A DNA stretch of 64,000 bases from an uncultured Nitrososphaerales archaeon (GTDB taxonomy: Archaea > Thermoproteota > Nitrososphaeria > Nitrososphaerales > Nitrososphaeraceae). The stretch is from NCBI GenBank assembly GCA_963695855.1, contig CAVOHZ010000010.1, positions 448,001 to 512,000 of the forward strand. Direction: 5' to 3'. The notes below the pieces were generated by a model. The model did no database searches and was not told the DNA's origin. It saw nothing but the letters and a program-made list of their open reading frames with translations. The position numbers were made by a program, and so were the translations under genes. Shown here in pieces: positions 18,818-40,454 of the stretch. Every line of letters begins with the position of its first letter. Position 1 is the first letter of the stretch.

Positions 18818-19236
18818 TTTTAAGTCAGAAGAAGGTATATGTCAATAATTATATAACCATGAGTGAACAACGTTAACCGATACTAAACAATCATTACAAA
18901 TTTAGAATTACTAGATGACAACAAAACTCTTTATTATCAAATTAATGTTCTAGATGTTCCAAAAATAACAGGGATCCATATTCATAAAGGTAACTTGGGT
19001 GAAAATGGAGATGTATTGGTGAGTATATATAATGTAAAGGAAGACATATTTAAAAATCAAAATACAACAAAAATTTCTGAAATAGAATCTAACTCTATAA
19101 CAATTAATGGAAACAAACAAAATTCCCTCGCCGCAAGTAGAACAATCAATAACTTGGATTTGCAAGGACCCCTGAAAGGAAAGAATATTTCTGATCTGAT
19201 CACTTTAACAGAAAGTGGAGACACCTACGTGAATGT
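18602..19236. repeat. Inverted repeat of 39901-40815 with a ~300-bp internal deletion
   Basis: 18602-18890 matches the reverse complement of ~40527-40815; 18905-19236 matches the reverse complement of 39901-40229 (3-bp indel). Confidence 0.92.
18863..18877 (-). promoter_or_regulatory. GTTAAC-N3-GTTAAC-type box upstream of TATA
   Basis: GTTAAC-GTT-GTTCAC-tcatgg-TTATATAA on the coding strand. Confidence 0.75.
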
Positions 19237-19318
19237 CCGTAGGACGATTAATATTGATGATGAAATCGGAAGTCAGATAAATCAAATTAAAATCAAAATT
19301 TTTAATTTTTTTAAATAA
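18905..19318 (+). pseudogene. 5'-truncated CHRD-domain gene copy
   Basis: Near-identical to the middle of 39852-40454 but lacks promoter, signal peptide and the VHSE..PDGEIRGQ end. Confidence 0.85.
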
Positions 19319-24128: not shown

Positions 24129-25490
24129 ATGAATAATGTTATTGAATATCCACCAGGTCCCAAAGATCTACTTCCCTATAGCATTGCTCGGAAATTTCTT
24201 CGAGATCCTCTTAAAACATTAATTGTCTTATCTGAAACTTATGGTGATATATCTCACTTTAAATTTGGTAAACAGGATGTCTATTTCCTGAATAATCCTA
24301 ATTACATTGAAGAAGTATTAGTAACTAATTACAAGAATTTTATTAAAAGTAGAGGATTGCAGGTATCAAAACGTCTGTTGGGCATAGGTTTGCTTACTAG
24401 TGAGGGCATTTATCATGATAAACAACGACACTTAATACAACCAACATTCTCCCCGACGAGAATCAGATCATACGTTGACGTGATGATTAAAAAAACTCTG
24501 AATAGCTGTGAAAAGTGGAATGAGGGGTCAATACTAGATATTCATAAAGAGATGACACGGCTTACATTGGAAATTATTTGTAAAACCGTATTAAGTTATG
24601 ATATTAAACCGGAGGATGATGAAGTAGGAGATTCACTTCTAACTTGTATGGAGTATTTTAATCGTCTTTTAATGCCGTTTGGTGAATTAATTGAAAAAAT
24701 CCCAATTTTACCAATCAATAAGGGATTTCAAAAAGCCAAAGGAAATCTAGATTCAATAGTTTTTAGAATAATCGACGAACATAGAGTCAAATTAGAGAAA
24801 AATGAGCAAGATAATGATCTATTATTTACTCTTTTACAGGCACAAGACTATGGTTCAGGCATTGGGAAGATGACTGACCAACAATTAAGAGATGAAGTAA
24901 TGACCATATTTTTGGCAGGACATGAAACAACCGCAAATGCGCTTACTTGGACATTTTATTTGTTATCCGAACATCCTACCATCGATGCTAGACTTCAAGA
25001 AGAAATTCATTCGATTTTTTGTAACAAAATAGATATGTCATTTCATGATATCTCAAAACTGCAATATACTGCAAAAGTACTGACAGAGTCTATGAGACTT
25101 TATCCACCTGCATGGGCTTTAGGACGTCAAGCGATTAATGATTGCAAAATTGGAAAATACATAATTCCGTCGGGTTCTATAATCTTAATGAGTCAATATG
25201 TGATGCACCGTAGTCAACATTATTTTCCCGAGCCTAACTCTTTTTATCCTGATCGTTGGACTGATGAATTTAAGAAAAGCCTGCCAAGATTTAGCTATTT
25301 TCCTTTTGGTGGTGGAATTAGAGGTTGCGTTGGAGAACCATTCGCATGGATGGAAGCAATTATCATTACAGCTGTCATAAACAGACTGTGGAAGATGAAT
25401 AGTACATTATCAAATAAGGTTGCTTTGAAACCATTGATAACATTGCGACCAAAGTACGGAATGCATCTGAAAATAACCAGAAGAGAATAA
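24129..25490 (+). CDS. Cytochrome P450
   Basis: AGHETT I-helix, ESMR (ExxR), PDRW, FGGGIRGCVG heme motif. Confidence 0.96.
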   Translation: MNNVIEYPPGPKDLLPYSIARKFLRDPLKTLIVLSETYGDISHFKFGKQDVYFLNNPNYIEEVLVTNYKNFIKSRGLQVSKRLLGIGLLTSEGIYHDKQRHLIQPTFSPTRIRSYVDVMIKKTLNSCEKWNEGSILDIHKEMTRLTLEIICKTVLSYDIKPEDDEVGDSLLTCMEYFNRLLMPFGELIEKIPILPINKGFQKAKGNLDSIVFRIIDEHRVKLEKNEQDNDLLFTLLQAQDYGSGIGKMTDQQLRDEVMTIFLAGHETTANALTWTFYLLSEHPTIDARLQEEIHSIFCNKIDMSFHDISKLQYTAKVLTESMRLYPPAWALGRQAINDCKIGKYIIPSGSIILMSQYVMHRSQHYFPEPNSFYPDRWTDEFKKSLPRFSYFPFGGGIRGCVGEPFAWMEAIIITAVINRLWKMNSTLSNKVALKPLITLRPKYGMHLKITRRE

Positions 25491-25662
25491 AAAAGAAATA
25501 TAATTTTATTTAAAATCCCAATTATCAAAAATCATTTTCAGATTATTAGACTCCTTGTTTCTTCTACTTTATACTCACATAGGACCGCTGTTATTGACAA
25601 ATGTTTCAGTCAAGCTTTAATCTATATAATACACATTTATCTTACTGATCTGTATATCCGAT

Positions 25663-27000
25663 ATGCAAAGAACTTCTACCATTAAAACTACTGTTAAGAC
25701 CAAAAAGGCCTATTCCCCATATGAGAAGTTTTTACGGTCAATCCATACCGAGGCAACCAGAACAGGATACAGTTATTACCTGAAACAGTTTCTGGAATAC
25801 TGTGGTTTTAATAAATATGAACAGTTACTTGTAAACATTTCTACCAAGAAGAAAGAAGATTTGATACGTAGTTACATTCAGTATCTGGTACAGGATAGAA
25901 AATTATCTTATTCAACTGTTAATAATACTACTGCAGCAATTCGTCTATTCTACGTAGCAAATGGTGTCTATCTGGCATTCTGGGAATCTTTGAAAAGTAT
26001 TAAAGGTAAAAATAAACTGATTATTAAGAATCGAACTTACACTGTTGACGAACTAAAATCATTGATTGAATATGCAGATTTGAGGGAAAAAGTTGCAGTT
26101 CTTGTAATGTTGTCAAGTGGAATTAGAGTTGGTGCACTTGCTAGGTTGAGGGTTGGTGATTTAAAGTATAATGAAGAATACAAACTGTATAGGATAGAGG
26201 CCTATAACAACGAGGAAGATGATACTACGGCAAATGATATGTACATTACCTATTGTACCCCAGAATGTGCTACTTATATCAACAAGTACTTGGAGGATCG
26301 TAAGAAAGGGGGTAAGGAAACCATTACTAAGGATTCACCACTTATCACGCATAAAATAGATTCTCCTACTAGAGATAGGAAAAAAAATTCCTATTTAAGT
26401 GTCAAGTCCATAGAAAAGGTGCTATCCAGGTTAAGGTACGATGCCAAAGTTATTGAACCTATTACAATGAAGGAATTGAGGAGGAAGGTAAGGGAGCAAC
26501 CCAATAAAAGGCCGTCTCAATTCATGCGCAAAGAAATAATGAGTACTCACGCATTTAGAAAATTCTTTGATACTGCATGTGTAGACAATAACGTCAACAT
26601 AAACATTATGAAGGCATTAATGGGTCATGATATCGGTCTACAAAAACACTACTACAAACCTGAAAATGAAAATAAGTTATTATCCGAGTACCTGAAGATA
26701 ATCGATGCTCTGACGGTAGATGAATCCTATAGGTTAAGACGCAAGACGGAGAAATTAGAAAAACAGGTTGAGGAAATCAACATATTAAAACAACAGATGA
26801 AGGAAAAAGATCAGGAATGGGGTAACGCATTACAGGATGCGTATTACACAAGTGAAGAATTAGAGACTATGAAAAAAGAATTTACTAAAGTTGTACAAGA
26901 ATCTTATGATTACCAAACCTACACAGAAGCAGAATTAGGGTTTTTAAGAAAACAATTAGAGATATTAAAACGTCAACTAAAAGAAAAGAATAAAAAATAA
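25663..27000 (+). CDS. Tyrosine recombinase/integrase with a C-terminal coiled coil
   Basis: SSGIRVG (R), HAFRKFF (HxxR), LMGH, HYY (catalytic Y). Confidence 0.93.
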   Translation: MQRTSTIKTTVKTKKAYSPYEKFLRSIHTEATRTGYSYYLKQFLEYCGFNKYEQLLVNISTKKKEDLIRSYIQYLVQDRKLSYSTVNNTTAAIRLFYVANGVYLAFWESLKSIKGKNKLIIKNRTYTVDELKSLIEYADLREKVAVLVMLSSGIRVGALARLRVGDLKYNEEYKLYRIEAYNNEEDDTTANDMYITYCTPECATYINKYLEDRKKGGKETITKDSPLITHKIDSPTRDRKKNSYLSVKSIEKVLSRLRYDAKVIEPITMKELRRKVREQPNKRPSQFMRKEIMSTHAFRKFFDTACVDNNVNINIMKALMGHDIGLQKHYYKPENENKLLSEYLKIIDALTVDESYRLRRKTEKLEKQVEEINILKQQMKEKDQEWGNALQDAYYTSEELETMKKEFTKVVQESYDYQTYTEAELGFLRKQLEILKRQLKEKNKK

Positions 27001-27387
27001 ATTTTCTTTCTGGATGAAATTTCATCCAAAATTAGAAAGAATAGTCGTCGTCCTTGTGAGGAGCATCGTAAGCATTGCATTTCATGCATAATTCCAAGTC
27101 ACTACCAAATGTCCTTTCCAATTCTAAGTAATCCGTCTCTCTTCCACACTGATCACAATGGAAATAGTACCAGTACGGCTTACCGTCTACGGGTGAAGTC
27201 ATTTTATTTCGGTGCTACTGGAAAGCAAATGTTAAATCTGATGAAATAATATTTAGAATTACTACTTTCAGATTTGACATCATGGTAGATGTTTTTGCGC
27301 TGGAGGTGGTAAAGATTTCTAGAGAGGGTCTTGTTTGCCCTTGGCCCTCTCTCCTATTTTTCTTCTCAATTACAATATTTTTCATTT

Positions 27388-27522
27388 CTATTTTTTTCCT
27401 TTCTGCTGCATATAGTAGTCGAATAACCTTAGGATTATTCCTTCATAGGTTTCACCTTTGACGCCTATCTTTTTCAATTTCTCGCGTGTGTCACTATCAA
27501 CAACGATTGTTGTTCTTACCAT
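27388..27522 (-). CDS. 44-aa RHH/antitoxin-like DNA-binding protein (not in ORF track)
   Basis: MVRTTIVVDSDTREKLKKIGVKGETYEGIILRLFD: beta-helix-helix pattern. Confidence 0.65.
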   Translation of the reverse strand: MVRTTIVVDSDTREKLKKIGVKGETYEGIILRLFDYYMQQKGKK

Positions 27523-27669
27523 ATTTTCATGAATGATGTTCATCATTATAATTACTTCTGATATAACATACTTATAAAGTATATGTCAGTATACAATTAA
27601 TGCATTAACAGTTATTCCATATGTAAGAATCATTATAGTATATATGATGGAATGTAATTAGAAATCTGT

Positions 27670-28743
27670 ATGACTAGCCCGACAAACGAAGAACGAATAG
27701 ACGAACTGATGAAAATGTTAAAACATGAGTCAGGTAAAATGAATTGGAAAGTAGTTGTAGATATAGTAAAAGAAGAATTGAAACCTTACCAGATACAAGG
27801 CTTTGCTCCTTCTCTTAGAACTATGTTTTATCGTCTATATTCAAAAGGCGTATTGCCCAATACCGAATATCATTACAATCAACTGAGCAAGGTCACGGCT
27901 GACGCAAGGATGGATAGACGTCTGCCGATAGATTGTTTTTCAGATTCAAGCAGAAACATGATAGCAGATTTCACAGAGGTTTATAAAACAATAGACGATT
28001 TTATGGACAGGGATTATCTGAAAAAAATAAAAGAACTGCCTGAAAAATATCCGGAACTTATACCAAGATGGCATCGACAACCTGAATATATTGAGGTCTG
28101 GATTGAAAAGGATGCTATGTTGGGAACATTTGAATCCATTCTTGAAGGAAGGGATGTTAGAATAGTTTCAAACAAAGGTTTTGACAGTCTATCATGGCTT
28201 TTGAAAAATGTAAAAAGATTGAGTATGTGGAGTAGGAAATGGGTTGATTCATCAATATTATTAGATGACCCAACGACGAGTAATTATAGACCCGCATTAA
28301 AGAATATTCATGTTCTGTATTTCGGTGACTTTGATCCATCAGGTGAAGATATGGATAGAGACCTGGAGAATAGGATTGATCTACTAAGGGAATACAAGCA
28401 TACAGGCATATCATTTGATGAAATAGATTTTCAGAGGATTGCAGTAACGAAAGATCAGATTAGAGAATATAATCTGCCGATAGATATAGATGCTGAAACC
28501 CAGGAGAAACTGGACAGGGATTCCAGAACCCCAGGATTCATAGAAAAATACGGCGAACTGTATGCTGTTGAACTTGATGCGTTGCCTGCTATTGTTCCCG
28601 ATGAATTTAGAGAATTGGTAATCGGTTCAGTTGACAAACATTTTGATGAAGATATCCATGAAGAAAATACGGCAGATTATTCTGAAGATGATACCAAGAA
28701 ATTAATAAAAAAATATTTAAAACAATTTTTAAAAGAATTCTGA
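27670..28743 (+). CDS. Spo11/TopoVI-A-like wHTH+TOPRIM protein
   Basis: SLRTMFY (candidate catalytic Tyr), IEVWIEKD, YFGDFDPSG, ELDAL. Confidence 0.78.
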   Translation: MTSPTNEERIDELMKMLKHESGKMNWKVVVDIVKEELKPYQIQGFAPSLRTMFYRLYSKGVLPNTEYHYNQLSKVTADARMDRRLPIDCFSDSSRNMIADFTEVYKTIDDFMDRDYLKKIKELPEKYPELIPRWHRQPEYIEVWIEKDAMLGTFESILEGRDVRIVSNKGFDSLSWLLKNVKRLSMWSRKWVDSSILLDDPTTSNYRPALKNIHVLYFGDFDPSGEDMDRDLENRIDLLREYKHTGISFDEIDFQRIAVTKDQIREYNLPIDIDAETQEKLDRDSRTPGFIEKYGELYAVELDALPAIVPDEFRELVIGSVDKHFDEDIHEENTADYSEDDTKKLIKKYLKQFLKEF

Positions 28744-28873
28744 TTTTTTGTGTGGCTAGTCACACAATCCACATTTTATTTTAAATTAAAATTTATTTTA
28801 TTTTAATCATTCAAAAATTTTTTGTGAAGATATTCCCATACTGGTTTATTAATAACAATTTTAATCCAAATAA

Positions 28874-29176
28874 ATGATAATCATGCAAAAAGAATTTGAA
28901 GAATTAGAACGTTGTGCGGATTGTGGTCATTATGGTGGTTACGAAGTGGTAGGAATTCCTGCTTATGATGATTCTGGTGCCCGTTGTTATCTCTGTGGCG
29001 AATCAGCAAAGACCAGATCACTGCCTTCTATGTTGTATCTAGATGGTGTAACAAATGAAGCACCACATTTTCGTTTTCTGATATGCAAGAATTGTATTGA
29101 TCACGCATATGAAGAACTAACACTGGCGTATAATTCAGAATCATATCAAGGATATGTACAAAGAATGTCCAGGTAA
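28874..29176 (+). CDS. Zinc-finger hypothetical protein
   Basis: CADC, CYLC, CKNC. Confidence 0.6.
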   Translation: MIIMQKEFEELERCADCGHYGGYEVVGIPAYDDSGARCYLCGESAKTRSLPSMLYLDGVTNEAPHFRFLICKNCIDHAYEELTLAYNSESYQGYVQRMSR

Positions 29177-29381
29177 AAATTTTAATTTTTCAGACTGAGT
29201 TAGGATATGACCACCGTGGCCACCGTGTCCAAAAATGTTTCATTATTACAATATTTCATATTGTACTTGTAGATCAGTTGCTATTCTTCTTATAGTCAAT
29301 ATTTCAGCATGATAAAATATTACAAGATTAGATAATGTTCCTTCCAACCATAGATATATTAAATTCGTATTTAACAATGCA

Positions 29382-30377
29382 ATGAGCGATAGTAAGAATA
29401 GAATCATAGTTTTTGCTTCTATACTGGGAGCAATACTGGCGACAAGTATACTGGCTCTAAACCCATCAACAATTACAAGTGCAGGTGCACAAATGGATGG
29501 AGACCAGTACGGATATGATAGGAACTATTACCAAGACGACAATAGATACGGATATGATAACCATGAAAAAAAGAGTTCTCATGGAGATATTCAGAAAATA
29601 AAGTGTGTAAACAGTAACATAAACGTCAATGGTGTAGATATTACCAAGATACCTCGAGACGACATTGCTGGTGTAGCGGCGGCAAATGAAGGAGGAACAG
29701 CAGCAGACGCAGCAAATACACAAAATGGTAACGGACTCGATAGAATAAACTTCGACAAGAATCTAGTAAACGTATGTGTAAATGTCAATGACAACGAACA
29801 GACAAAAATTACTCCTCCAGGTGAAACACCACCACCAGTAGAAGAAACAGCAACATTAACCGTAAATAAACAAGTTTTTGGTTGTACTGTTGTTATTGGT
29901 GGTGCAATGACTTGTGACCTACAAAATACTTCACCATTATGGCAGGCATGTGCCGATCCGACATCGGATATATTCGGTAACTCTTTCTGTGAAGGATTAC
30001 CAGAAGACACATTCAATATTGAAGTATTAGATGGGCAGGATAATCAAATTCGGCCCCCGTTTCAAGGATCTGCAATAGGAACAACAATTCCAAATCTGCA
30101 ACCAGGCAATTATCAAGTAAATGAGATAAAAAATCCGGATATTACTGTCGAGAACGAGTTAGTACGAAATGCAGATTCCCAAATAGGATGTCTTCTTAAC
30201 GGATTTGATGATGGCGGACAATTGTTTGCCTCATCACCGGGCATAATATATGAAGATATATGTTTTGAATATGAAGACGAACAGGGAAATGATTGCAGTA
30301 CATTGACATTAGCGCCAGGAGAAGAAAAGACATGCACAGTTAAGAACTACATACAACTTGCTTATCCCCAATCTTGA
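29382..30377 (+). CDS. Secreted surface protein with a Cys-rich beta-sandwich domain
   Basis: Signal peptide; Tyr/Asp tract; KIKCVNSNINVNG; ATLTVNK..CTVKN. Confidence 0.75.
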   Translation: MSDSKNRIIVFASILGAILATSILALNPSTITSAGAQMDGDQYGYDRNYYQDDNRYGYDNHEKKSSHGDIQKIKCVNSNINVNGVDITKIPRDDIAGVAAANEGGTAADAANTQNGNGLDRINFDKNLVNVCVNVNDNEQTKITPPGETPPPVEETATLTVNKQVFGCTVVIGGAMTCDLQNTSPLWQACADPTSDIFGNSFCEGLPEDTFNIEVLDGQDNQIRPPFQGSAIGTTIPNLQPGNYQVNEIKNPDITVENELVRNADSQIGCLLNGFDDGGQLFASSPGIIYEDICFEYEDEQGNDCSTLTLAPGEEKTCTVKNYIQLAYPQS

Positions 30378-30546
30378 TGTGACGGGGTAAACTCCACTTT
30401 TTTTTTATTTTGTTTCTAATCTGGGTTAATTAATTATTTGGGAATATACATTCCATTATCGATAAAGTCTCTTGCTAGCAATTTCTTTTTGGTTTCTTTC
30501 TCCTCTTCCGTAACCGTTACCAGTTTATCCATTGTATTCATCATCA

Positions 30547-33033
30547 TTACTCCCATGCGTTCCCCTTAAAGTCTACCTGTACTCCCTCCCTCCTTAAGGA
30601 CTCAATCCGATCCTTCGTAGGTTGGGGAGGCTGATCATTATGTGCTAACATACTATGAATAAGGTGCTGTTTGATGTCAGGAGATTCATTGTCGCAGTAG
30701 TTGCAGCCGTATAGTAATTCCATTGGTGCTCTTGTTGTCGTCTCTGTCGTCGATTCCTTGTCTTTCATATCTTTGTTATCGATTATGCCCTCAATCGATA
30801 TGAATGGGCTTATTTTGCCAAAAGGAGCAATATTTGGGCTCCGATTGTTATCGATTGGGCTAGGGGCAGTGTGGTATATTTTTACAAATTCATCTGGTGA
30901 AATCTTAGTTTTTCCCTCGTCGTTTAGTATCTGAAACCTATTTTCATCATTTAGATAATAAATAAGATTTTCCATGTTATACCCCTGACCCAATCGATAT
31001 GAAATCAACTGTGTTATTTTAGATAATATCCAATCTTCATTGATTTTTTCTGTAATTTTTTCATAAAGACCATTACTTTGTTGTGAAAGCACATCGATTG
31101 GCTTCATAATCGATATACTAGATATGCTTTCTGTGACCAATGGATAGTAAATATATTGCTTTGAGTTTATCTTGGAGTTTGTATAGTCGATTATTCCCTC
31201 GTTGACTAACTGATTTAGGAATGTTTGTTTTAGATTATCAGTCGAAATGGGTTTCTTTTTAACCTCCTTGTAAAAGTCGCAAAGTTCCCTTGTTGTTACT
31301 GCCACCACCTCTTCACATTTTTCTGATTTCTCACCCGTGTTTTGAATATCTACATGGCCATCCTTCGAATTGTAGCATGGGATGAAGACATCCCTTAAGA
31401 AGTCCAATTTAAATTTAGGCAGTCCCTCAAAATTCTGATTCATGGAAAGCACCTCCTTAAGGTCCTCGAGTTCAGCAATTACTGACGTTTCACCTTCCAG
31501 GACCAACAGTTTTCTAAGATTAAGTTTTACAACAGGAACGATATTCAGTAATGCAAAAACCCTTTTTAGAAATCTTACATCCATACCCTTGTTATGTGGT
31601 AGTTGTTTCTCCAACACGTCATTGTATGGAACCCAGACGCTTATCTTTCGGTTCTTATTTTTCTCTTTCAATTCTCTGATTTTGTGTTTTATTAGTAGGA
31701 CACACTGTTTTGTTAGGTCGATTCGTTCATTAGAGATTATTAGTTGTTCTTGAATTATATTCGGCATTCCGTAAGTTACCGCTATCAATTCGTTAGATTG
31801 TTTATACTTTTCAGGAACCATATTAGGAGACGTTGGAAGAATCCTGCTCTTTATCTCAGGCCATATCTCCCATTTTGATTCATCTTTTGCACTGCAGAAA
31901 ATACAGGCTGGCCAACCTCTAACCAATACTTTCTTAGTTTGATGACCCGTTCTGTCAGTATGATTTACAAAGTCATATTGCATCTCTCTTTTATCATGTT
32001 CCTCTGATAGGACTACCCTCACTATCTGATTTTCAGTATCTATTTCAACAACTGTAATTGCAGTTACCGACGAACTAAATCCAGGGTCAATACCTACACC
32101 ATGTAAACAACCGGAATTGATAGATAAGTCTCTGTATTTCTCTCCTAATTCTATAGCGTCTTCAATGTCTACTAGACTGAATATGTTACCTATATGGCCT
32201 GTATATTGGAGATTGTATTCTCTTTCGAATGATGGCGAGATTTTGGCCTTTTCAATATCTTCTGTTGAATATATTTTATCCAATCCATACCTGTAGTCTA
32301 ATTTGATTCTTTTATAAAGACATTCGTTTACTGGTTCTTGTTCAATAGTTTGCATAAGTCCACCTGGAGCATTTGGTGTACTAACCATTACAATGAAAGG
32401 GTTAGACTTTGCGATATAACGTTCTGATACTGCTCTTACATCTTCCTGTTGACCCTTACTAAAAAAGTCACATTCATCTAATAAAATGAATTTAGGATTA
32501 TCTAGACTTCGGAAACTATCTACATGATGACTAGGAAAACTTTCGATAGTCACACCATTTAGTTTAACAAGGGTTTCTTTTGTATCAAAGTAAATATTTA
32601 ATTGTTGAAATAAATTTTTTATTCTAGTTATTAATTTCTTTGAAAGTTCCCAATTAGGTCCAGTAACAAGTACAAATTGAGAACCCTGGTATGTATTATC
32701 TTTAAGACATAGATAGACCATATATCTTAGGAATAATTCAGTAATACCTAATCCTGTAGCCTTCAATATCCATAAATGTTTACTATCTTTTAATAATTCT
32801 ATAATCTGATTCTCATAATCAAATAATGGTTTCTCTAACCCATTTTTTTGGGGCATGCCTAATATATGATTAAAACAACATGTTCCATTAGTTGTCACAT
32901 ATTGCTTATTATGCTCTACTTTATCCCATATGTAAAATGGTTTATCTTTGAAGATTTGTAGTCTTGGATTGCTAGTATTAGAATACTGGTTCTGATTCTG
33001 TGATATTAGTTTCTGTAAGTCTTTCCATCCCAT
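30547..33033 (-). CDS. Terminase large-subunit-like ATPase fused in frame to a replication-protein-like C-terminal half
   Basis: aa 1-350: ILKATGLGITE (degenerate Walker A), ILLDE, VMVSTPN, FEREY, GIDPG; aa 351-828: unrelated region with wHTH and C2H2 finger. Confidence 0.72.
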   Translation of the reverse strand: MGWKDLQKLISQNQNQYSNTSNPRLQIFKDKPFYIWDKVEHNKQYVTTNGTCCFNHILGMPQKNGLEKPLFDYENQIIELLKDSKHLWILKATGLGITELFLRYMVYLCLKDNTYQGSQFVLVTGPNWELSKKLITRIKNLFQQLNIYFDTKETLVKLNGVTIESFPSHHVDSFRSLDNPKFILLDECDFFSKGQQEDVRAVSERYIAKSNPFIVMVSTPNAPGGLMQTIEQEPVNECLYKRIKLDYRYGLDKIYSTEDIEKAKISPSFEREYNLQYTGHIGNIFSLVDIEDAIELGEKYRDLSINSGCLHGVGIDPGFSSSVTAITVVEIDTENQIVRVVLSEEHDKREMQYDFVNHTDRTGHQTKKVLVRGWPACIFCSAKDESKWEIWPEIKSRILPTSPNMVPEKYKQSNELIAVTYGMPNIIQEQLIISNERIDLTKQCVLLIKHKIRELKEKNKNRKISVWVPYNDVLEKQLPHNKGMDVRFLKRVFALLNIVPVVKLNLRKLLVLEGETSVIAELEDLKEVLSMNQNFEGLPKFKLDFLRDVFIPCYNSKDGHVDIQNTGEKSEKCEEVVAVTTRELCDFYKEVKKKPISTDNLKQTFLNQLVNEGIIDYTNSKINSKQYIYYPLVTESISSISIMKPIDVLSQQSNGLYEKITEKINEDWILSKITQLISYRLGQGYNMENLIYYLNDENRFQILNDEGKTKISPDEFVKIYHTAPSPIDNNRSPNIAPFGKISPFISIEGIIDNKDMKDKESTTETTTRAPMELLYGCNYCDNESPDIKQHLIHSMLAHNDQPPQPTKDRIESLRREGVQVDFKGNAWE

Positions 33034-33499
33034 TGTTATTATTTACCTTACCATTACCATTATTATTAGATAATTTGTTTTTGTGTACTTCTACGAATTT
33101 AATAGAATCCTGCAGTAATGAAGCGTTAGTTAATAGGTCCATTTTAGTTGAATAGGTATCCTTTATCAGTGATAACGATTGTAGTTTCTCTTTTGTATCC
33201 CCTTCCTTTTCTGCTTTTGCTGCTATAATCCAGGATTCCTTAATGATTTCTTCCAAACCCTGCAGACATTTGTTATATTCGTACGGTAACCGTTGCTGTA
33301 TATGATTCCTTATTATCTCTATTGCCTGTTCCTTCAATAGGTCCGCATCTCTTGAAATGGTAGCCTCACTTATCTGCAGCATCCTCGATATCTCTGCCTG
33401 TGAGTATCCCTTAACTGCTAACTCCTGGACCTTACTACGACGCCACTTGAGGCGTTCTTTCATCTGTGATTTTGGACCTTTCATCTTTTCATTAGCCAA
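32978..33499 (-). CDS. HTH protein, candidate terminase small subunit
   Basis: GYSQAEISRMLQISEATISRD HTH plus helical hairpin; overlaps the TerL start. Confidence 0.6.
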   Translation of the reverse strand: MANEKMKGPKSQMKERLKWRRSKVQELAVKGYSQAEISRMLQISEATISRDADLLKEQAIEIIRNHIQQRLPYEYNKCLQGLEEIIKESWIIAAKAEKEGDTKEKLQSLSLIKDTYSTKMDLLTNASLLQDSIKFVEVHKNKLSNNNGNGKVNNNNGMERLTETNITESEPVF

Positions 33500-33602
33500 C
33501 TCTTAATACTTGCATTTAGGTTAGTAACTATAATAAGTATAGTGGATTCAACTGCCAGGACAGAAGACACATTAAGGCGATTCATAGACATACCGTTAGT
33601 AT

Positions 33603-34031
33603 ATGATAATGGTAATGACATTTAATAAAAATATAATATTTGTACTGTTGATAGCAGCATCTATCTTTTTTAATATAGTACCTGCATTAGCAGTAGAAAC
33701 AGTAGACCGGTGTACATATTATGGCGGTACTTGGGACGACACCGATACCATCTGTAATTTTGATGACCCAGAAAAGAAAGCAGTGTATGAGGCCGCCTTC
33801 CAAGCATGGCTAGCAGAGTATGAAGACGTCAATCCAACAATACTACATCTATGTGAAAGTTACGGTGGTACTTGGGACACGATAAGTAATGACTGTGTTA
33901 TTTATGACCCAGAAAAGAAAGCCGCATATGAGATAGCATATGATGTCGCCTATCAAGAATGGAAAGCAGAGATAGAGAAATCAAATCAGGAAGTAATAGG
34001 CGGATACTGTGTATTTGCAGGATGTGATTAA
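33603..34031 (+). CDS. Secreted Cys-repeat protein
   Basis: Signal peptide; two CxxYGGTWDxxxxxC..DPEKKAxYE repeats. Confidence 0.7.
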   Translation: MIMVMTFNKNIIFVLLIAASIFFNIVPALAVETVDRCTYYGGTWDDTDTICNFDDPEKKAVYEAAFQAWLAEYEDVNPTILHLCESYGGTWDTISNDCVIYDPEKKAAYEIAYDVAYQEWKAEIEKSNQEVIGGYCVFAGCD

Positions 34032-34037
34032 ATAAAG

Positions 34038-34337
34038 TTGATGACCGAATTAAAAATGGTAACAACAGCAGTTGTGATGGTGGTGTTGTTAGTAATGCCT
34101 ATGTTTTTTAATATAGCATATGCAGAAACAGAATTTGCCAAACCAACACAACAACTATGTGAAGGCCGATACTATAACGGTACTTGGACTGGTACCGATT
34201 GTATTGAAATCCCTGATCCACAAAAGGAAGCAGAGTGGGAAGTATTGAAAGTAGTGGAAGCAATGGAAGCAGAGAGAATAGCAGAAGAATGGAAACGAGC
34301 ATGTATGCTACCTGGGTCGTGTACGTTCATCAAGTGA
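34038..34337 (+). CDS. Secreted Cys-repeat paralogue
   Basis: Signal peptide; C..YYNGTW..C..DPQKEAEWE single repeat. Confidence 0.68.
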   Translation: MMTELKMVTTAVVMVVLLVMPMFFNIAYAETEFAKPTQQLCEGRYYNGTWTGTDCIEIPDPQKEAEWEVLKVVEAMEAERIAEEWKRACMLPGSCTFIK

Positions 34338-34344
34338 ATGCAGT

Positions 34345-34464
34345 ATGGCCATCATAAAAGTCGATGCCTTCAAGTGTAACGTCTGCGGCCACATCTGGAT
34401 CCCGTGCTGGTCCACGGTAATAGGTTCAAGTTGTTCGTGTACCATTAGCGATTTTTCCAAATAA
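34345..34464 (+). pseudogene. Truncated Zn-ribbon ORF
   Basis: MAIIKVDAFKCNVCGHIWIP, then sequence with no recognisable motif. Confidence 0.35.
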
Positions 34465-34652
34465 TCTTAATTGTTGTCATTTTCTTACTATTCACTCTCC
34501 CAGATGTTATCTTTAAAGTCTACGTGAATACAAAAAGTTGTAAATTCAAAAGAACAAGCCTTACAATACTTTGCAGACTTCGACCATAAGGATTGCATGG
34601 TTAAGGCCTTTTATAACTCCAAACTAGAAGTACTATACAATTTTGTATTACC

Positions 34653-34790
34653 TATATGACCATCTGGTACATATGACCGAATTTTCATTCCCATTTTTTT
34701 TAAATTATTATCATTCATGATTATCATCCATTTTTTTTACCATTCTCAAACTGGTCATATACACCAGATAGTCATATGACCTATATGACC
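34653..34790. repeat. Origin-like inverted repeats (ATATGACC units) around an AT-rich spacer
   Basis: 34653-34678 versus the reverse complement of 34753-34778: 22/26 identical; 74-bp AT-rich spacer; extra units to 34790. Confidence 0.7.
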
Positions 34791-37037
34791 TCATGTCAAT
34801 ACCTCATTTCCACTGGAACTTTCTTCATCTTCTGTTCCAATTTTTGCAACAACATACTTTAGTGTCTTGGGTTTTAGGCTTACTGTTCTAACGTTCAAGG
34901 TCTCCCCTAACCTATCTATAATATCTTGAAGAGATTTATTGGTGTCAAGGGTCCATTTATCCTTCAAGTATTCTTTGATAACTGTTTTTCGTTCGGCTGC
35001 TTGCTTGCATAGTTCATGTACTGTAAATTCTACACCTGCATTTTCATGCAAAATAACATGAAATTCCTCAATTACTACGTCCCTGGGGTCCGATACACTA
35101 TCCACTATTGCGCCGTACTGTTGGAACATCAATTTCATAAGGTTCATTGTTTTGGTTGCTATCATGTCGTCAACCGTCCAGGACATGTTTAATTTGGCCT
35201 GTGCTTCTGCTATCCTCTGAATAAAGTCGAATGTTCTGTTAGAGGCTACACCCTTTAATTTCGCATTAACCCAGAATTGATTAAGTCGTTTTTGAGAATA
35301 ACCAGTCCATTTAGGTACAATACCTTTAACATGTTCCAGGTATTTATTCAGAAATCTATAGTTGTGTGGCTTCCTATTCTTTATCTTGGTTTTTTCTTCT
35401 GTGTAGTGAGTTAATTCCTCCTTAGTTTCAAAGTCAAAGAATGCATAAACCTGGTCGAACCTATTCAATAGATTTTTCTTTATTGGAATCTTTGAATTTG
35501 ATATTTTATCCTTGGAATCCCATGTCATATTTACGGGGTTGGTTGTTGCTATAACTGTAGTAGGTGCATCTATCTCAAAATGTCTGCTATATCTTTCCAG
35601 TGTACAACGGCCTTCCTCTACTATCTCATCAAAATACTTTTGGTCCTCATAATCCATTACTCCAATCTCGTTTATTACTACATGCGAATTCTTTGCAAGG
35701 ACTAGTACCCCATACGATACGGATAGACTGTTATCGTTATCTTTTTCTACAATTCCTATTAGAGATTTACCGTTAATTCCAGATGCAGTAACATATTTAG
35801 AATTAGGATTTATCCTTGTTGACTCTTTACCTAACACAGATTTGGAGGTACCCAGGTCTCCAACCAGTAACGTGTTTATCCTTCCCCTCCTACCGTTATC
35901 AATACCACTGATTTTATTTCCTCCAACTACAGAACGTAAAATACCTATCTTCTTATCATTATGACCTACTACATTGGGTGCAAACATAGAGACAACTATC
36001 TGTTCAAACGTCATTGGTTTAACGTAGTGTTTACATGCTGGACATTTAGGATATTTCTTAATTAGTTCAAAATCCTTCTTATATTTCTCATCACAGACAT
36101 CCTTCCATCTCTTGATAACATCCACGTCTTTTTCAGTTAATTGTATTTTCTCTTTGCTCCTTGATACTATGTTCCGGCTATGAAGTACATTGATTAGTTT
36201 TTTAGACCTCTCACCAGAACCTGGCTGAATTCTTATGTTTCCTCTTATATCTACAATTTCACCAGAAACTATATTATCAATTGCATCTCCATACAAAATG
36301 ACGTGAAGTCTATCATATTGGTCTTCGATATTTTCGATATCGTCTAACCATATTTTCTTGGCCTTTATGGTTTCTTTAGTTATTTCAAATCCTGTACTTT
36401 TACATCTGAAACATACAGACGTTGGTGAGTTTGTAGCAACACTGAAAATCTTGGGAAGATATTCTAATGGAAAATCATCAAAAGATTGGGAACCCTGGTT
36501 ATCACAGTCCAACGCAGCACATTTCCAATCCAACTTGGTTATAGCCTTGTATGTGATTGTTATTCCTGATATCCTACCTGTTACCAGTGCAGGCCCTTCC
36601 TCAGGTGTTCTGATTGCCTCTATAACAGATATAGGCCTATTTTCCTGTTCCTCACGTTCTTTTTGTTCTTTTTGTATTTGTTCCTGTATACTCTGATTTA
36701 ATTTGTAAATATTATATTCTTTAATAGTATGAATCATCTTTTCTTTGTTAATCTCTAAATGAAGAACTTCAATGATACAACCTGTGTCAAATGAATCAAT
36801 ATTATATTCTTCATCTAGTTTTTTGATAAGATATTCAATATTCTCGTTTTTTACATCGCCAAATTTATCAAATGTAATAGGGAATATTATTAATGGGATT
36901 TCGTTGTGTACCCCATTCAACTTCAAAAGGCCTTCATTTGATTCTCCATTAAAATCAAATCTTTCTATGGTTTCATCTTCTACTAGTCTGGGAGTAAGTT
37001 CCAGGGCAACAATAAATTCTTTAGTGGTAGTAGTCAT
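34791..37037 (-). CDS. mcm: Element-encoded MCM-family helicase
   Basis: Zn finger C..C/CFRC, FAPNVVG, RGRINTLLVGDLGTSKS, INE (Walker B variant), TTNP, LLNRFD, RIAEAQAKL. Confidence 0.88.
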   Translation of the reverse strand: MTTTTKEFIVALELTPRLVEDETIERFDFNGESNEGLLKLNGVHNEIPLIIFPITFDKFGDVKNENIEYLIKKLDEEYNIDSFDTGCIIEVLHLEINKEKMIHTIKEYNIYKLNQSIQEQIQKEQKEREEQENRPISVIEAIRTPEEGPALVTGRISGITITYKAITKLDWKCAALDCDNQGSQSFDDFPLEYLPKIFSVATNSPTSVCFRCKSTGFEITKETIKAKKIWLDDIENIEDQYDRLHVILYGDAIDNIVSGEIVDIRGNIRIQPGSGERSKKLINVLHSRNIVSRSKEKIQLTEKDVDVIKRWKDVCDEKYKKDFELIKKYPKCPACKHYVKPMTFEQIVVSMFAPNVVGHNDKKIGILRSVVGGNKISGIDNGRRGRINTLLVGDLGTSKSVLGKESTRINPNSKYVTASGINGKSLIGIVEKDNDNSLSVSYGVLVLAKNSHVVINEIGVMDYEDQKYFDEIVEEGRCTLERYSRHFEIDAPTTVIATTNPVNMTWDSKDKISNSKIPIKKNLLNRFDQVYAFFDFETKEELTHYTEEKTKIKNRKPHNYRFLNKYLEHVKGIVPKWTGYSQKRLNQFWVNAKLKGVASNRTFDFIQRIAEAQAKLNMSWTVDDMIATKTMNLMKLMFQQYGAIVDSVSDPRDVVIEEFHVILHENAGVEFTVHELCKQAAERKTVIKEYLKDKWTLDTNKSLQDIIDRLGETLNVRTVSLKPKTLKYVVAKIGTEDEESSSGNEVLT

Positions 37038-37354
37038 TGGAAAAATGTCTCCAACTTTTGAATTTTATCTAGAATTTTGTTTGTGTCTGATTTACAATTT
37101 GCGATTGATTTTTGTGTTGATTTAAGTTCTTCCTGCAGTATTTGATAGTCTGAATGTAGTATCCAACATGTCGAACATTTACATTTTTTTCTAGCAGTTG
37201 AATTATTTTCTAGAGCAAAACTTTTATGTTCTGCAGTTCCAATACAACCTGGAAGTTCATTAGTTCGTCTAGGTTGACCTTCTCTTTTCATGTAGTCATA
37301 GGTTCCGTCACCTGATTTTGTGGCGGGACTTTTGATCTTTTTATTTAATCTCAA
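37034..37354 (-). CDS. Hypothetical protein coupled to MCM
   Basis: ATGA overlap with the MCM start; CKCSTC. Confidence 0.55.
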   Translation of the reverse strand: MRLNKKIKSPATKSGDGTYDYMKREGQPRRTNELPGCIGTAEHKSFALENNSTARKKCKCSTCWILHSDYQILQEELKSTQKSIANCKSDTNKILDKIQKLETFFQ

Positions 37355-37669
37355 AAAGTGTTACGCCTCCCGACAGATACAGATTTTGAATGCACTAAAG
37401 ATTTGTCAGTCACTACAGGCAAAGTATTAAATCCTGTAGCCAACCAACGCCGAGAGGGATAGGAGTGTAATGATATTTTGAAGTTTTGTTAAATTTTGTG
37501 GAAATTTATGAATTTCTGTAAGCGTAGTTTGTGCGTAACTATTGATATCAGTACAAACCTTTAAAAATGAATATTTTATATCATCCATTTAGCGTTCGTC
37601 TCCGGTGTCTGCGTGGGATAATGCTTTTATGCTCGGCGGAGTGCTTGCCGCCCGGGCTACCTTTTATTA

Positions 37670-37855
37670 TCATTCCTGGGGACTAGTCTCCACTTTTTTT
37701 CTAAATTCTATTAGTTCATGAACCCTTTCGCTAAAGGTTTGATCCTTCCTGGTTTCAGAAACTAATTCGTTATAAACCTCAGGTCTTAACCCGATGTTTT
37801 TTCTGATTTGATGTTCTTTCAACAACATTATTTTCATATAGTGGTGTAAATTCAT
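37670..37855 (-). CDS. RHH/antitoxin-like DNA-binding protein
   Basis: KNIGLRPEVYNELVSETRKDQTFSERVHELI. Confidence 0.6.
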   Translation of the reverse strand: MNLHHYMKIMLLKEHQIRKNIGLRPEVYNELVSETRKDQTFSERVHELIEFRKKVETSPQE

Positions 37856-38496
37856 TATTAATAAAACTTCTTTTACTCAAAAAATTATTACGCAACATAT
37901 TCAATTGGAGCACGATATGCATGAATGTCAGACCATCGAAAGGACATATCCTGAGGCTTAATACACATCGAAGACGTGTTTACTTTAATGACATCTGTTC
38001 CTGATGAAAGTAGGTGTACAAGCATACATCGAGAGGTGCGGTGAAAGAATAAGAACAATAATATAATATGTGCATGCTGCTTGTCCAATAATTTACAGAA
38101 AGATGGTCTTTACTGACCGTACGAAGTTTTCTTTTTTAAAGAATGATTCAATTACAAACCATGCACGGTATTCCATTATTCACATACCTCATGGAAGATA
38201 TGGTTTATGCCAATGTATCTATAATTTGTACTCTAGCATAGTTGTTCTATAAGAGAGATATAGCGTGAGTCAGTTGTACTGTGAATAACACAATACAGAA
38301 ACAACATCTATCGGATCTGGATAAGAAAATTTGGGGGTTTAAACGAGTACAATTTAGGAATATATTCTAGAGTATTAAAGGTTATTCATAATAATACATA
38401 CAGGAAAAGACAGGAGAGATTCATGAAGTTTCTTTGTGGTAGGTAGATGAAACATTCGAAAAATAAGAACAAATATTTTTTATACACTACGTCATG

Positions 38497-39851: not shown

Positions 39852-40454
39852 TTATGTTATTTGACCTCTGATTTCGCCATCAGGATTAGATTCGCTATGA
39901 ACATTCACGTAGGTGTCTCCACTTTCTATTAAAGTGATCAGATCAGAAATATTCTTTCCTTTCAGGGGTCCTTGCAAATCCAAGCTATTGATTGTACCAC
40001 TTGCGAGGGAATTTTGTTTGTTTCCATTAATTGTTATAGAGTTAGATTCTATTTCAGAAATTTTTGTTGTATTTTGATTTTTAAATATGTCTTCCTTTAC
40101 ATTATATATACTCACCAATACATCTCCATTTTCACCCAAGTTACCTTTATGAATATGGATCCCTGTTATTTTTGGAACATCTAGAACATTAATTTGATAA
40201 TAAAGAGTTTTGTTGTCATCTAGTAATTCAAAAGACGTGCTTCCGATACCAGTTGTTTTAATGGGTGGTACCTGTTCGTTTCCAGTTAATGTCGCCGTAT
40301 ATTTATATTTTAGACTGTTGCTTTCATCTAGGTTTTTTCCGCTTTGCCCTTGACCATAAGCTAAGATGTTAGTATTTGATAAAAGCAATAACATCAATAT
40401 TCCCACAGAAAAAAATACTGTGGATATCACTAGACGTGTTTTATTTTTGTCCAT
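39852..40454 (-). CDS. Secreted CHRD-domain protein
   Basis: LTGNEQVPP, GIHIHKG, YVNVHSESNPDGEIRGQ. Confidence 0.9.
   Translation of the reverse strand: MDKNKTRLVISTVFFSVGILMLLLLSNTNILAYGQGQSGKNLDESNSLKYKYTATLTGNEQVPPIKTTGIGSTSFELLDDNKTLYYQINVLDVPKITGIHIHKGNLGENGDVLVSIYNVKEDIFKNQNTTKISEIESNSITINGNKQNSLASGTINSLDLQGPLKGKNISDLITLIESGDTYVNVHSESNPDGEIRGQIT

Follow-up and report, generated by a model that had tools for sequence, protein, structure and literature searches.

A 12,353-bp element occupies positions 25618-37970 of a 64,000-nucleotide stretch of DNA from an uncultured Nitrososphaerales archaeon (GenBank assembly GCA_963695855.1, contig CAVOHZ010000010.1, positions 448,001 to 512,000; hereafter the window). 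Judged from sequence, it belongs to a large multicopy family of the Nitrososphaeraceae in which a small helix-turn-helix (HTH) gene is followed by a genuine large-terminase (TerL) gene. With a probability of roughly 0.5, we read it as a capsid-less mobile element that has integrated site-specifically into the genome of an ammonia-oxidising archaeon from soil, satellite-like in that it would use the procapsids of an unrelated helper tailed virus. The terminase gene of the window copy is itself an in-frame chimera with part of a replication gene (Rep), and intact members were found elsewhere in the same genome and in its relatives.

The borders of the element were read from soil-metagenome contigs. 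Parts of the window are present as contigs in only four DNA sequencing runs, all of one study, at shares of 0.08-0.25, and no RNA run is listed as containing any of it. One contig of run X2 joins position 25617 to position 37971, skipping the 12,353 bp, with 21 other letters in between and 32 nt on its shorter side; two contigs of run X1 break at 25617 and then go on with the same letters. The occupied left junction was bridged by another X2 contig (record 10; 25423-25632, zero mismatches). The element is therefore 25618-37970, and the initial annotation, which had proposed an integrated element at 25550-38450, was right about its existence and slightly too wide at its borders. The element is present in some genomes of the sampled soil population and absent from others. 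The border evidence is thin, coming from contigs of a single study with a short side on the bridging contig, and is consistent across two runs. The G+C content is 0.32-0.38 inside the element against about 0.26-0.31 in most of the flanking kilobases.

The element begins 45 nt before its integrase gene. No tRNA was found nearby, and att sites were sought by exact and short-BLAST comparison of the two ends with each other and with sibling element L009, with no result above chance. At 13 nt, the longest exact flanking direct repeat lies within coding sequence. Ten letters recur exactly near both ends (25627-25636, 9 nt in from the left border, and 37959-37968, 2 nt in from the right) and are no more than a candidate core site. 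The open reading frame (ORF) of 66 aa that straddles the right border (37888-38088) is probably not a gene. Orthologues of the neighbouring P450 gene occur in eight congeneric genomes. In all four regions examined (L106-L109, compared with window 25490-25620), similarity to the window stops at the P450 stop codon and the genes downstream differ, also between genomes, so that no empty site can be read by synteny. This suggests that the place downstream of the conserved P450 gene is plastic, an insertion hot spot. We also observed that two genes encoding CHRD-domain proteins, 89% identical over 128 aa, flank the element, one about 6 kb to its left (18896-19279; C10:466896-467279) and the other about 2 kb to its right (39852-40454); this neighbourhood may be a larger variable island.

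The 828-aa ORF of the element combines two unrelated matches. Within the same genome, its residues 1 to about 350 match about 11 other places at 45-75% identity and its residues from about 330 to 828 match different genes. The first part is 66-75% identical to intact TerL paralogues over residues 18-350, and the profile made from the TerL family alignment (A1) aligns to it over profile positions 1-358 of 482 only. An N-terminal ASCE ATPase was recognised by phrog_2 and by a Walker A-like KATGLG and a Walker B LLDECD motif. Within the RNase H-like nuclease, TerL homology ends at about residues 345-358, before D374: this invariant aspartate of the family and the near-invariant D456, D464 and D467 fall beyond the break and are missing from the window protein. 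The second part is 57% identical to protein P0241 from residue 336, 49% to the 991-aa P0255, which carries a precomputed primase-polymerase accession (PrimPol, PF09250), and 25% to a 685-aa protein of sibling element L010. Its intact relatives are 545-995 aa long, some again with precomputed PF09250, and their alignment displays an N-terminal P-loop (Walker A/B), a long conserved middle and a C-terminal C2H2-type zinc finger. The family of 685-aa Rep-like proteins (P0121 and relatives) has the precomputed accession PF27228.

Pairwise alignments place the switch point at about residues 336-346. On the TerL side this is just beyond the opening strands of the nuclease domain, and on the side of the Rep-like family just beyond the Walker B region; the PrimPol and P-loop parts of Rep lie upstream of the join and are absent. 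The join itself was read from the assembly, metagenome contigs covering window position 32000 thinly. A search of 5.8 billion proteins, restricted to lengths of 455-1449 aa, produced no second example: among the 120 matches listed, out of 904 at E≤1e-5, not one extends over more than 59% of the ORF. By these alignments the ORF is an in-frame chimera of a TerL ATPase with the C-terminal ~480 aa of a replication protein, the nuclease core having been lost. The initial annotation had taken a fused TerL as a sign that this copy was rearranged, and the separate TerL and Rep families, with no full-length relative among the matches listed, bear this out. A simple deletion between tandem elements, considered as the origin of the fusion, is contradicted by the gene order of the siblings: Rep stands upstream of the HTH-TerL pair in them and not downstream. 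As the frame is open over 828 codons, either the fusion is recent or its product is used. The window copy is probably packaging-defective on its own. It may still excise and replicate, or be served in trans by four intact sibling TerLs.

The TerL family is large. A 482-aa paralogue of the same genome (locus L009) found 2463 proteins at E≤1e-5 among the 8000 scored; typical members are 480-510 aa long and about 50% identical, and a few have a precomputed Terminase_6N or 6C accession. In a GTDB collection of one genome per prokaryote species, 130 stretches encode a TerL relative. The 80 best were retained, giving 79 loci that stem almost entirely from Nitrososphaeraceae or Nitrososphaerales metagenome-assembled genomes (MAGs), often several per MAG. 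A survey of the class, made on an even draw of 301 genomes with tallies that include two unpublished genomes (G254 and G160), gave matches at E≤1e-10 in 34 of them, many carrying stop codons; by family, matches were obtained in 24 of the 39 genomes of the host's own family, in 7 of 180 of a second and in 2 of 9 of a third. The genome under study itself contains about 11 further TerL-like places, four of them with uninterrupted frames of 444-495 aa; an intact sibling TerL of 480 aa is encoded at C10:1525856-1527277.

An AlphaFold model of the intact paralogue, which is 66% identical to the TerL part of the window ORF, reached a mean pLDDT of 87.5 with an alignment of 24 sequences. Its best Foldseek matches in the PDB span both domains and are large terminases: T4 gp17 (2e-18), HK97 (9e-15) and D6E/Sf6 (about 1e-13). 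Isolated ATPase and nuclease domains follow further down the list, among them the nuclease domains of G20c, P22 and RB49. Modelled in this way, the intact TerLs of the family fold as true large terminases, and the possibility left in the initial annotation, of an ATPase unlike terminases in structure, did not materialise. Sequence searches of the PDB with TerL, the Rep-like protein and the A1 profile returned nothing significant. D317 and D374 are invariant in the family and the catalytic-type residues are invariant or nearly so; together with the structure matches, this indicates an RNase H-like nuclease in the intact members. In six element-element TerL pairs with dS of 0.5-1.1, the ratio of nonsynonymous to synonymous divergence (dN/dS) was 0.04-0.17; three further pairs had dS of 2.6-4.1 and five were saturated, so that these eight are uninformative. 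Estimated from the six pairs, intact TerLs are under purifying selection.

The surroundings of TerL were compared in 90 loci (79 MAG loci, 10 regions of the same genome and the window, after eight small duplicate loci had been dropped), whose 1567 proteins were clustered. A c1-type HTH protein accompanies TerL in 34 loci, an integrase in 25, the clusters c3 and c5 in 13 and 12 and a c7-type upstream protein in 8; a PriX-domain primase was found in 7, a large Rep-like protein in 7 and a D5-like primase-helicase in 5, and ParB-methyltransferases also occur. A small same-strand ORF lies directly upstream in 26 of the 35 full-length TerLs with upstream context. Where TerL has 5 kb or more on each side, as in 18 loci, an integrase of at least 300 aa is present in 12 and a recognised replication module in 9. 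These modules are interchangeable across the family: the window has MCM, and other loci have either a PriX primase together with a P-loop Rep or a primase-helicase of D5-like type. MCM was seen in 2 of the 90 loci, the window and L035 (28% identity), the latter also pairing it with HTH-TerL. Four siblings (L009, L010, L011 and L013) have the order integrase, cargo, TerL, HTH, PriX primase, Rep. In L013 the TerL is intact (479 aa) and is accompanied by a PriX primase, a Rep-like gene that is split, c5, c3 and, further downstream, a 381-aa protein of the integrase cluster.

The HTH protein of the window, a member of cluster c1, has the position and size of a small terminase (TerS). Its HTH-family matches are all sub-threshold, no TerS family exceeds its threshold, and its ESM-Atlas neighbours include a Uroviricota HTH_23 cluster (0.94). 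A TerS-like role is suggested by this placement. Just downstream of TerL, a subgroup of loci encodes two conserved proteins, c5 (about 155 aa, often on the opposite strand) and c3 (about 230 aa): L011, L013, L016, L019-L021, L023, L026, L029-L031, L049 and L066 (for example L019:1462-2160). The c3 model (pLDDT 70) found no Foldseek match at E≤0.001 (best 0.14), a best VIA-align Z of 3.2 and no usable ESM-Atlas match. In L031 an integrase directly after c3 ends the element. Behind the TerL of L050 lies a defence-type island (L050:11565-21485) with GmrSD carrying a Swt1-like HEPN domain, NurA-like and HerA-like proteins, and a helicase with a methyltransferase.

Head genes were searched for at several levels. 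Among the 16 element ORFs scanned against Pfam and PHROGs, none matched a capsid, portal, protease or tail family, in agreement with the initial annotation; the unassigned ones are all at most 142 aa long or of secreted type, and apart from secreted-type proteins none has a size suited to an HK97 capsid, a portal or a maturation protease. Among the 90 loci, 248 representative proteins (clusters with a representative of at least 220 aa and clusters found in at least 3 loci) gave no portal or major-capsid PHROG at E≤1e-3. The control consisted of 38 loci from IMG/VR whose TerLs are related. Among their more distant virus contigs, which are mostly unidirectional, PHROGs detected a portal (L123), major head proteins (L123, L140 and L112), minor head proteins (L111 and L112) and, in L112, a minor tail protein as well. 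For the contigs closest to the family (L110, L111, L113 and L115), the gene in portal position (506-525 aa) and the 380-445-aa genes behind it had zero PHROG matches, and Pfam detected nothing in them.

The TerLs of L110, L111 and L113 are 47-50% identical to those of the elements. In these virus contigs TerL is followed by the gene in portal position and, in L111, by a minor-head-protein match. When the proteins of six virus contigs were compared with the 90 loci by BLAST, homologues were limited to TerL, the c7-type upstream protein, c5-type proteins (a c5 homologue stands behind TerL in L111; c3 has a homologue in none), ParB-methyltransferases and a pair of small proteins. No structural gene of the nearest virus contigs had a homologue there, a single match between L079 and L111 excepted. 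TerL was thus found beside portal and capsid genes neither in the element nor in the 90 loci nor, by comparison with virus-contig proteins, anywhere in the genome; intact homologous loci with portal and capsid, which the initial annotation had named as the sign of simple provirus decay, did not appear. At the scale of the whole genome, 74 of 809 virus-locus proteins found a match: TerLs, MCM-like genes, methyltransferases and host-type genes. A suspected provirus at C8:350-370 kb consists of ordinary host genes (CTP synthase, NAD kinase, PIG-L and a giant repeat protein). The Pfam families PF05065, PF04860, PF05133, PF17289 and PF20441 had zero matches in the genome; as Pfam likewise fails to recognise the intact TerLs of this genome and the control contigs' head genes, this null is uninformative. 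Two CRISPR-like arrays (C8:550855-551596 and C10:1185516-1186329) have a 30-nt repeat in common and contain 11 and 12 spacers, respectively; neither the window nor a family locus nor a virus contig is matched by any of these 23. A single spacer matches the genome itself, at C3:303179-303213 (92% over 37 nt).

In bacteria, phage satellites have their DNA packaged into the procapsids of a helper. By analogy, in an intact member of the family the integrase would insert and excise the element; its own helicase would start replication, in the window at the iteron-like cluster beside the MCM gene; the TerS-like HTH protein would mark element DNA; and TerL would cut this DNA and pump it into procapsids of an unrelated helper tailed virus. 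We further propose, tentatively and with somewhat less than even confidence, that soil Nitrososphaeraceae harbour an old, diversified family of tailed-virus satellites with a complete TerS-like plus TerL motor of their own and no head gene, of which the window copy would be a recombinant. The initial annotation had offered a candidate virus satellite: the integrase, own replication and capsid-less anatomy agree with it, and satellite status is still something that we infer, no helper having been found in the genome.

Several observations weigh against a satellite. No homologue of the virus contigs' portal-position or head genes exists in this 99.9%-complete genome. No contig of the four metagenome runs contains a circular junction, a form that the initial annotation had suggested looking for. 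Although the window TerL is without its nuclease, presence of the element varies within a natural population, so that mobility or loss need not depend on TerL. The c1-type HTH protein, with its sub-threshold matches only, has no BLAST homologue in the virus contigs. Of the 1060 protein clusters, 812 (below 220 aa and in fewer than 3 loci) lay outside the PHROG scan; as PHROGs and Pfam miss the head genes of the closest virus contigs, such libraries are weak for this lineage. Some matches point toward structural genes: L066:6440-7558 matches tail-fibre PHROGs at 1e-7, L092:5541-6827 is a protease with a baseplate/lysozyme PHROG row at 2e-6, L079:1948-2934 resembles the 381-aa protein of L111 (28% over 192 aa, 1e-9) and L050:6955-8193 weakly matches head-maturation proteases, a ClpP-like SDH protease family of Pfam fitting it better. 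At least seven TerL copies of the genome are broken, and only 44 of the 137 TerL cluster members have a length of 430-570 aa, fragments being common, as decay would also produce. Finally, a maximum-likelihood tree from a quick search, built on 44 TerLs of elements and 24 of viruses after removal of the window chimera, five duplicated virus rows and all fragments not within 430-570 aa, places 21 virus rows in one clade (SH-aLRT 100) and nests L110, L111 and L113 in the element clade, beside the own-genome copies most like that of the window. The element/virus label needs three changes on this tree, for which long-branch warnings were given for L110 and for L066 with L113. This nesting could reflect repeated decay from virus to remnant.

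Such decay would make the elements tailed proviruses that had lost their morphogenetic module, with TerS and TerL as functionless relics. The terminase of NitKor-E1, an integrated element of Ca. Nitrosopumilus koreensis AR1, was called 'likely a relic' by Krupovic et al. (2019; PMC6563490); the genome and its relatives abound in TerL pseudogenes, the window copy itself is broken, and the nested virus TerLs fit as well. It is nevertheless an unlikely account of the family: the 90 loci, by PHROGs on the representatives and by BLAST with the virus-contig proteins, retain no remnant of portal or capsid, integrase and replication genes recur directly beside TerL, dN/dS is low between element copies at dS of about 1, and the catalytic motifs are invariant. 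This selection, on a TerL with no capsid gene at all, would also suit an integrative plasmid-like element that uses the HTH-TerL pair for a task other than filling capsids, such as cutting concatemers to unit length, exporting DNA (for example in vesicles) or competing with infecting tailed viruses for procapsids or DNA. The close linkage of the pair to replication modules and the lack of a resident helper provirus agree with such an exaptation, and the chimera illustrates that the ATPase can be combined with DNA-binding parts of a replication protein. Against it, the chimera is unique among the matches listed and intact proteins keep the complete two-domain fold of a packaging motor. We know of no precedent for a terminase acting outside capsid packaging. 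In the parts of PMC6563490 available to us, the terminase complex is said not to have been found before in non-viral mobile elements, and we regard exaptation, too, as improbable.

The elements might also be complete viruses whose orphan ORFs (c3 and c5 in relatives, small ORFs in the window) build a capsid invisible to searches. Many ORFs are without family, the c3 model matches no solved fold and the profile libraries miss even head genes of related virus contigs. Against this speak the window's unassigned ORFs, which are at most 142 aa long or of secreted type, a portal needing about 400 aa or more, and also L031, where the element ends at an integrase directly behind c3. To our knowledge, TerL motors occur only with portal-bearing HK97-type capsids. 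We consider a virus of this kind very improbable.

Bacterial phage satellites, namely phage-inducible chromosomal islands (PICIs) and the related Staphylococcus aureus pathogenicity islands (SaPIs), capsid-forming PICIs, P4 and phage-inducible chromosomal island-like elements (PLEs), have an integrase, their own replication initiator or helicase, small regulators and cargo in about 10-15 kb. They carry no or few virion genes, and their packaging genes are related to those of helper viruses. Classical PICIs are not known to carry more than TerS or a redirecting protein, and some bacterial satellites have no terminase gene; capsid-forming PICIs have TerS and TerL with capsid and portal. The element resembles PICIs in being integrated between discrete borders with an integrase and its own replication module, and in having no complete virion genes within the sensitivity limits of profile libraries; of the HK97-fold capsid, portal and maturation protease of a Caudoviricetes provirus, none was found in it. 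It differs from bacterial satellites in its archaeal host, in its motor-only gene set and in a helper dependence that is presumed. We know of no described satellite type with a TerS-like plus TerL pair and no head gene. Compared with the Nitrososphaeria tailed viruses L110, L111 and L113, the family shares the related TerL, c7-type, c5 and ParB-methyltransferase genes, whereas elements and genome are without homologues of the portal-position gene, the minor head protein and further large genes.

The closest published relative in gene content is NitKor-E1. According to the accessible text of PMC6563490, it carries TerS, TerL, an integrase, VapBC and a nuclease, its terminase was found enigmatic and probably a relic, and it was classed as a cryptic integrated element. 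The window element shares with it thaumarchaeal integration, a tyrosine integrase, a (candidate) TerS directly upstream of TerL and no other tailed-virus gene. By its gene content it falls among the cryptic integrated elements of Krupovic et al., a class for integrase-bearing integrated mobile elements that are assignable neither to proviruses and casposons nor to IS-like transposons and conjugative elements, and the 'new replicon type' proposed in the initial annotation gives way to this printed precedent. In contrast with NitKor-E1, a single case read there as a relic, the present family has hundreds to thousands of members with several copies per genome, is under purifying selection and brings its own replication modules. 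The same source names tailed proviruses of Nitrososphaeria (Nvie-Pro1 and others) and two MCM-bearing thaumarchaeal cryptic elements, NitGar-E6 and NitEve-E3. These resemble the window element in combining an integrase with MCM as the element's replication protein; in the text at hand they are not reported with a terminase, unlike the present family, in which MCM is one of several modules. Beyond NitKor-E1, a limited literature search, with most subscription journals outside it, found no described archaeal terminase-bearing capsid-less family or tailed-virus satellite.

The genes of the element are collected in Table 1. The integrase, the TOPRIM protein, the overlapping HTH and terminase-ATPase pair, the MCM with an origin-like repeat and the secreted cargo described in the initial annotation were all recovered by Pfam and PHROG matches, repeat counts and N-termini read by eye; its two ribbon-helix-helix-like regulators correspond to two small ORFs whose assignment to that fold is weakly supported (a DUF7557 protein and a VapB-like protein below cut-off).

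Table 1. Features of the integrated element, with positions in the window.
Feature	Position	Strand	Basis and remarks
Tyrosine integrase, 445 aa	25663-27000	+	PF00589 3.3e-9, PF13495 1.7e-6, phrog_1 3.8e-14
Zinc-ribbon-like ORF, 56 aa	27032-27202	-	Weak PF09723, 0.0026, below cut-off
56-aa ORF	27215-27385	-	Zero family matches (Pfam, PHROGs)
DUF7557 protein, 52 aa, putative small regulator	27388-27546	-	PF24434 4.3e-7
Mini-A-like Toprim protein, 357 aa	27670-28743	+	phrog_6247 'DNA topoisomerase' 2e-41
Cys-rich ORF, 100 aa	28874-29176	+	Zero family matches; no paralogue in genome
Secreted-type cargo protein, 331 aa	29382-30377	+	Hydrophobic N-terminus by eye; zero family matches
Fused TerL/Rep ORF, 828 aa	30547-33033	-	phrog_2 (large terminase) on aa 66-344, 2.3e-16
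Rep-derived part, aa ~346-828	30547-31999	-	C-terminal region of PrimPol/P-loop replication protein, terminal C2H2-type zinc finger
TerL-derived part, aa 1 to ~345	32000-33033	-	ATPase domain and first nuclease-domain strands
HTH protein in TerS position, 173 aa	32978-33499	-	HTH families sub-threshold; overlaps TerL start by 56 nt
Secreted-type protein, 142 aa	33603-34031	+	Hydrophobic N-terminus by eye; direct repeats D1-D4
Secreted-type paralogue of the 142-aa protein, 99 aa	34038-34337	+	Shares repeats D1 and D2 with 33603-34031; hydrophobic N-terminus by eye
Iteron-like cluster, five ATATGACC copies, one inverted	34654-34790		Around an A+T-rich stretch
MCM helicase, 748 aa	34791-37037	-	PF00493 1e-31 (profile 14-211 of 224), weak MCM_lid, phrog_10371 7e-50
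106-aa ORF	37034-37354	-	Zero family matches (Pfam, PHROGs)
53-aa ORF	37427-37588	-	Zero family matches (Pfam, PHROGs)
VapB-antitoxin-like small DNA-binding protein, 61 aa	37670-37855	-	PF02697 1.8e-5, 25.9 bits, below 27.9-bit cut-off

Homologues of the integrase exist in 17 other family loci, the best being 60% identical (L009). The zinc-ribbon-like ORF has no paralogue in the genome, and paralogues of the DUF7557 protein adjoin the integrases of two sibling elements in it. The MCM, with its AAA+ P-loop domain (PF00493), is 27% identical to the other MCM gene of the genome (C10:1643240-1644442). The repeat ATATGACC occurs in 8 copies in the window, 5 of them within 137 nt abutting the MCM stop codon, against 2.5 copies expected per window; 0 of 100 shuffles reached 8. 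The cluster is a candidate replication origin. The 331-aa cargo protein has about 50 tblastn matches across the genome and, as cluster c6, is present in 9 of the 90 loci; its family is large and paralogous, many of the copies lie close to other TerL elements, and the first ~150 aa are conserved while the C-termini vary. The 142-aa ORF contains an internal 141-nt duplication with a conserved Y-G-G-T-W-D-type motif. COX4 was not taken as a family assignment for this protein: the whole-protein E was 8.6e-6 and no single stretch passed.

The Toprim protein occurs in 3 of the 90 loci, with homologues in L044 and L083, and had no sequence match in the PDB. The motifs RTMFY, WIEKD, DFDPSG and AVELDAL were read by eye in its translation. 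In the portion of Takahashi et al. (PMC7671362) available to us, Mini-A, a virus-borne protein like the A subunit of type IIB topoisomerases, is characterised by a catalytic tyrosine, E...DxDxxG and xWELDAL. The window protein shares the Toprim E...DxDxxG, a tyrosine in RxxFY context, an xWELDAL-like box, carriage by a mobile element and the lack of a B subunit, no Bergerat-fold protein being among the element's Pfam matches; its AVELDAL box differs from the consensus given there in having V for W. Judged by these motifs and the PHROG match, it fits the Mini-A type.

Terminase counts as a hallmark of tailed viruses, and the viruses of soil ammonia oxidisers, key nitrifiers, are almost unknown. 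Our reading of the family is a genomic one. Should selected terminases be widespread on capsid-less elements, TerL matches in archaeal genomes and soil viromes could not be counted as proviruses. The chimera of a TerL ATPase with Rep shows in nature how domains can be shuffled between a packaging and a replication protein. Now that intact copies, virus contigs related to them and an insertion polymorphic in nature have been defined, the puzzle of NitKor-E1 can be put to the test. Relative to bacterial satellites, a motor-only design would be new: if the satellite reading is true, these elements would be the first archaeal satellites of tailed viruses, with a capsid-borrowing strategy based on their own motor that is not described in Bacteria either, and satellite parasitism of viruses may extend to Archaea.

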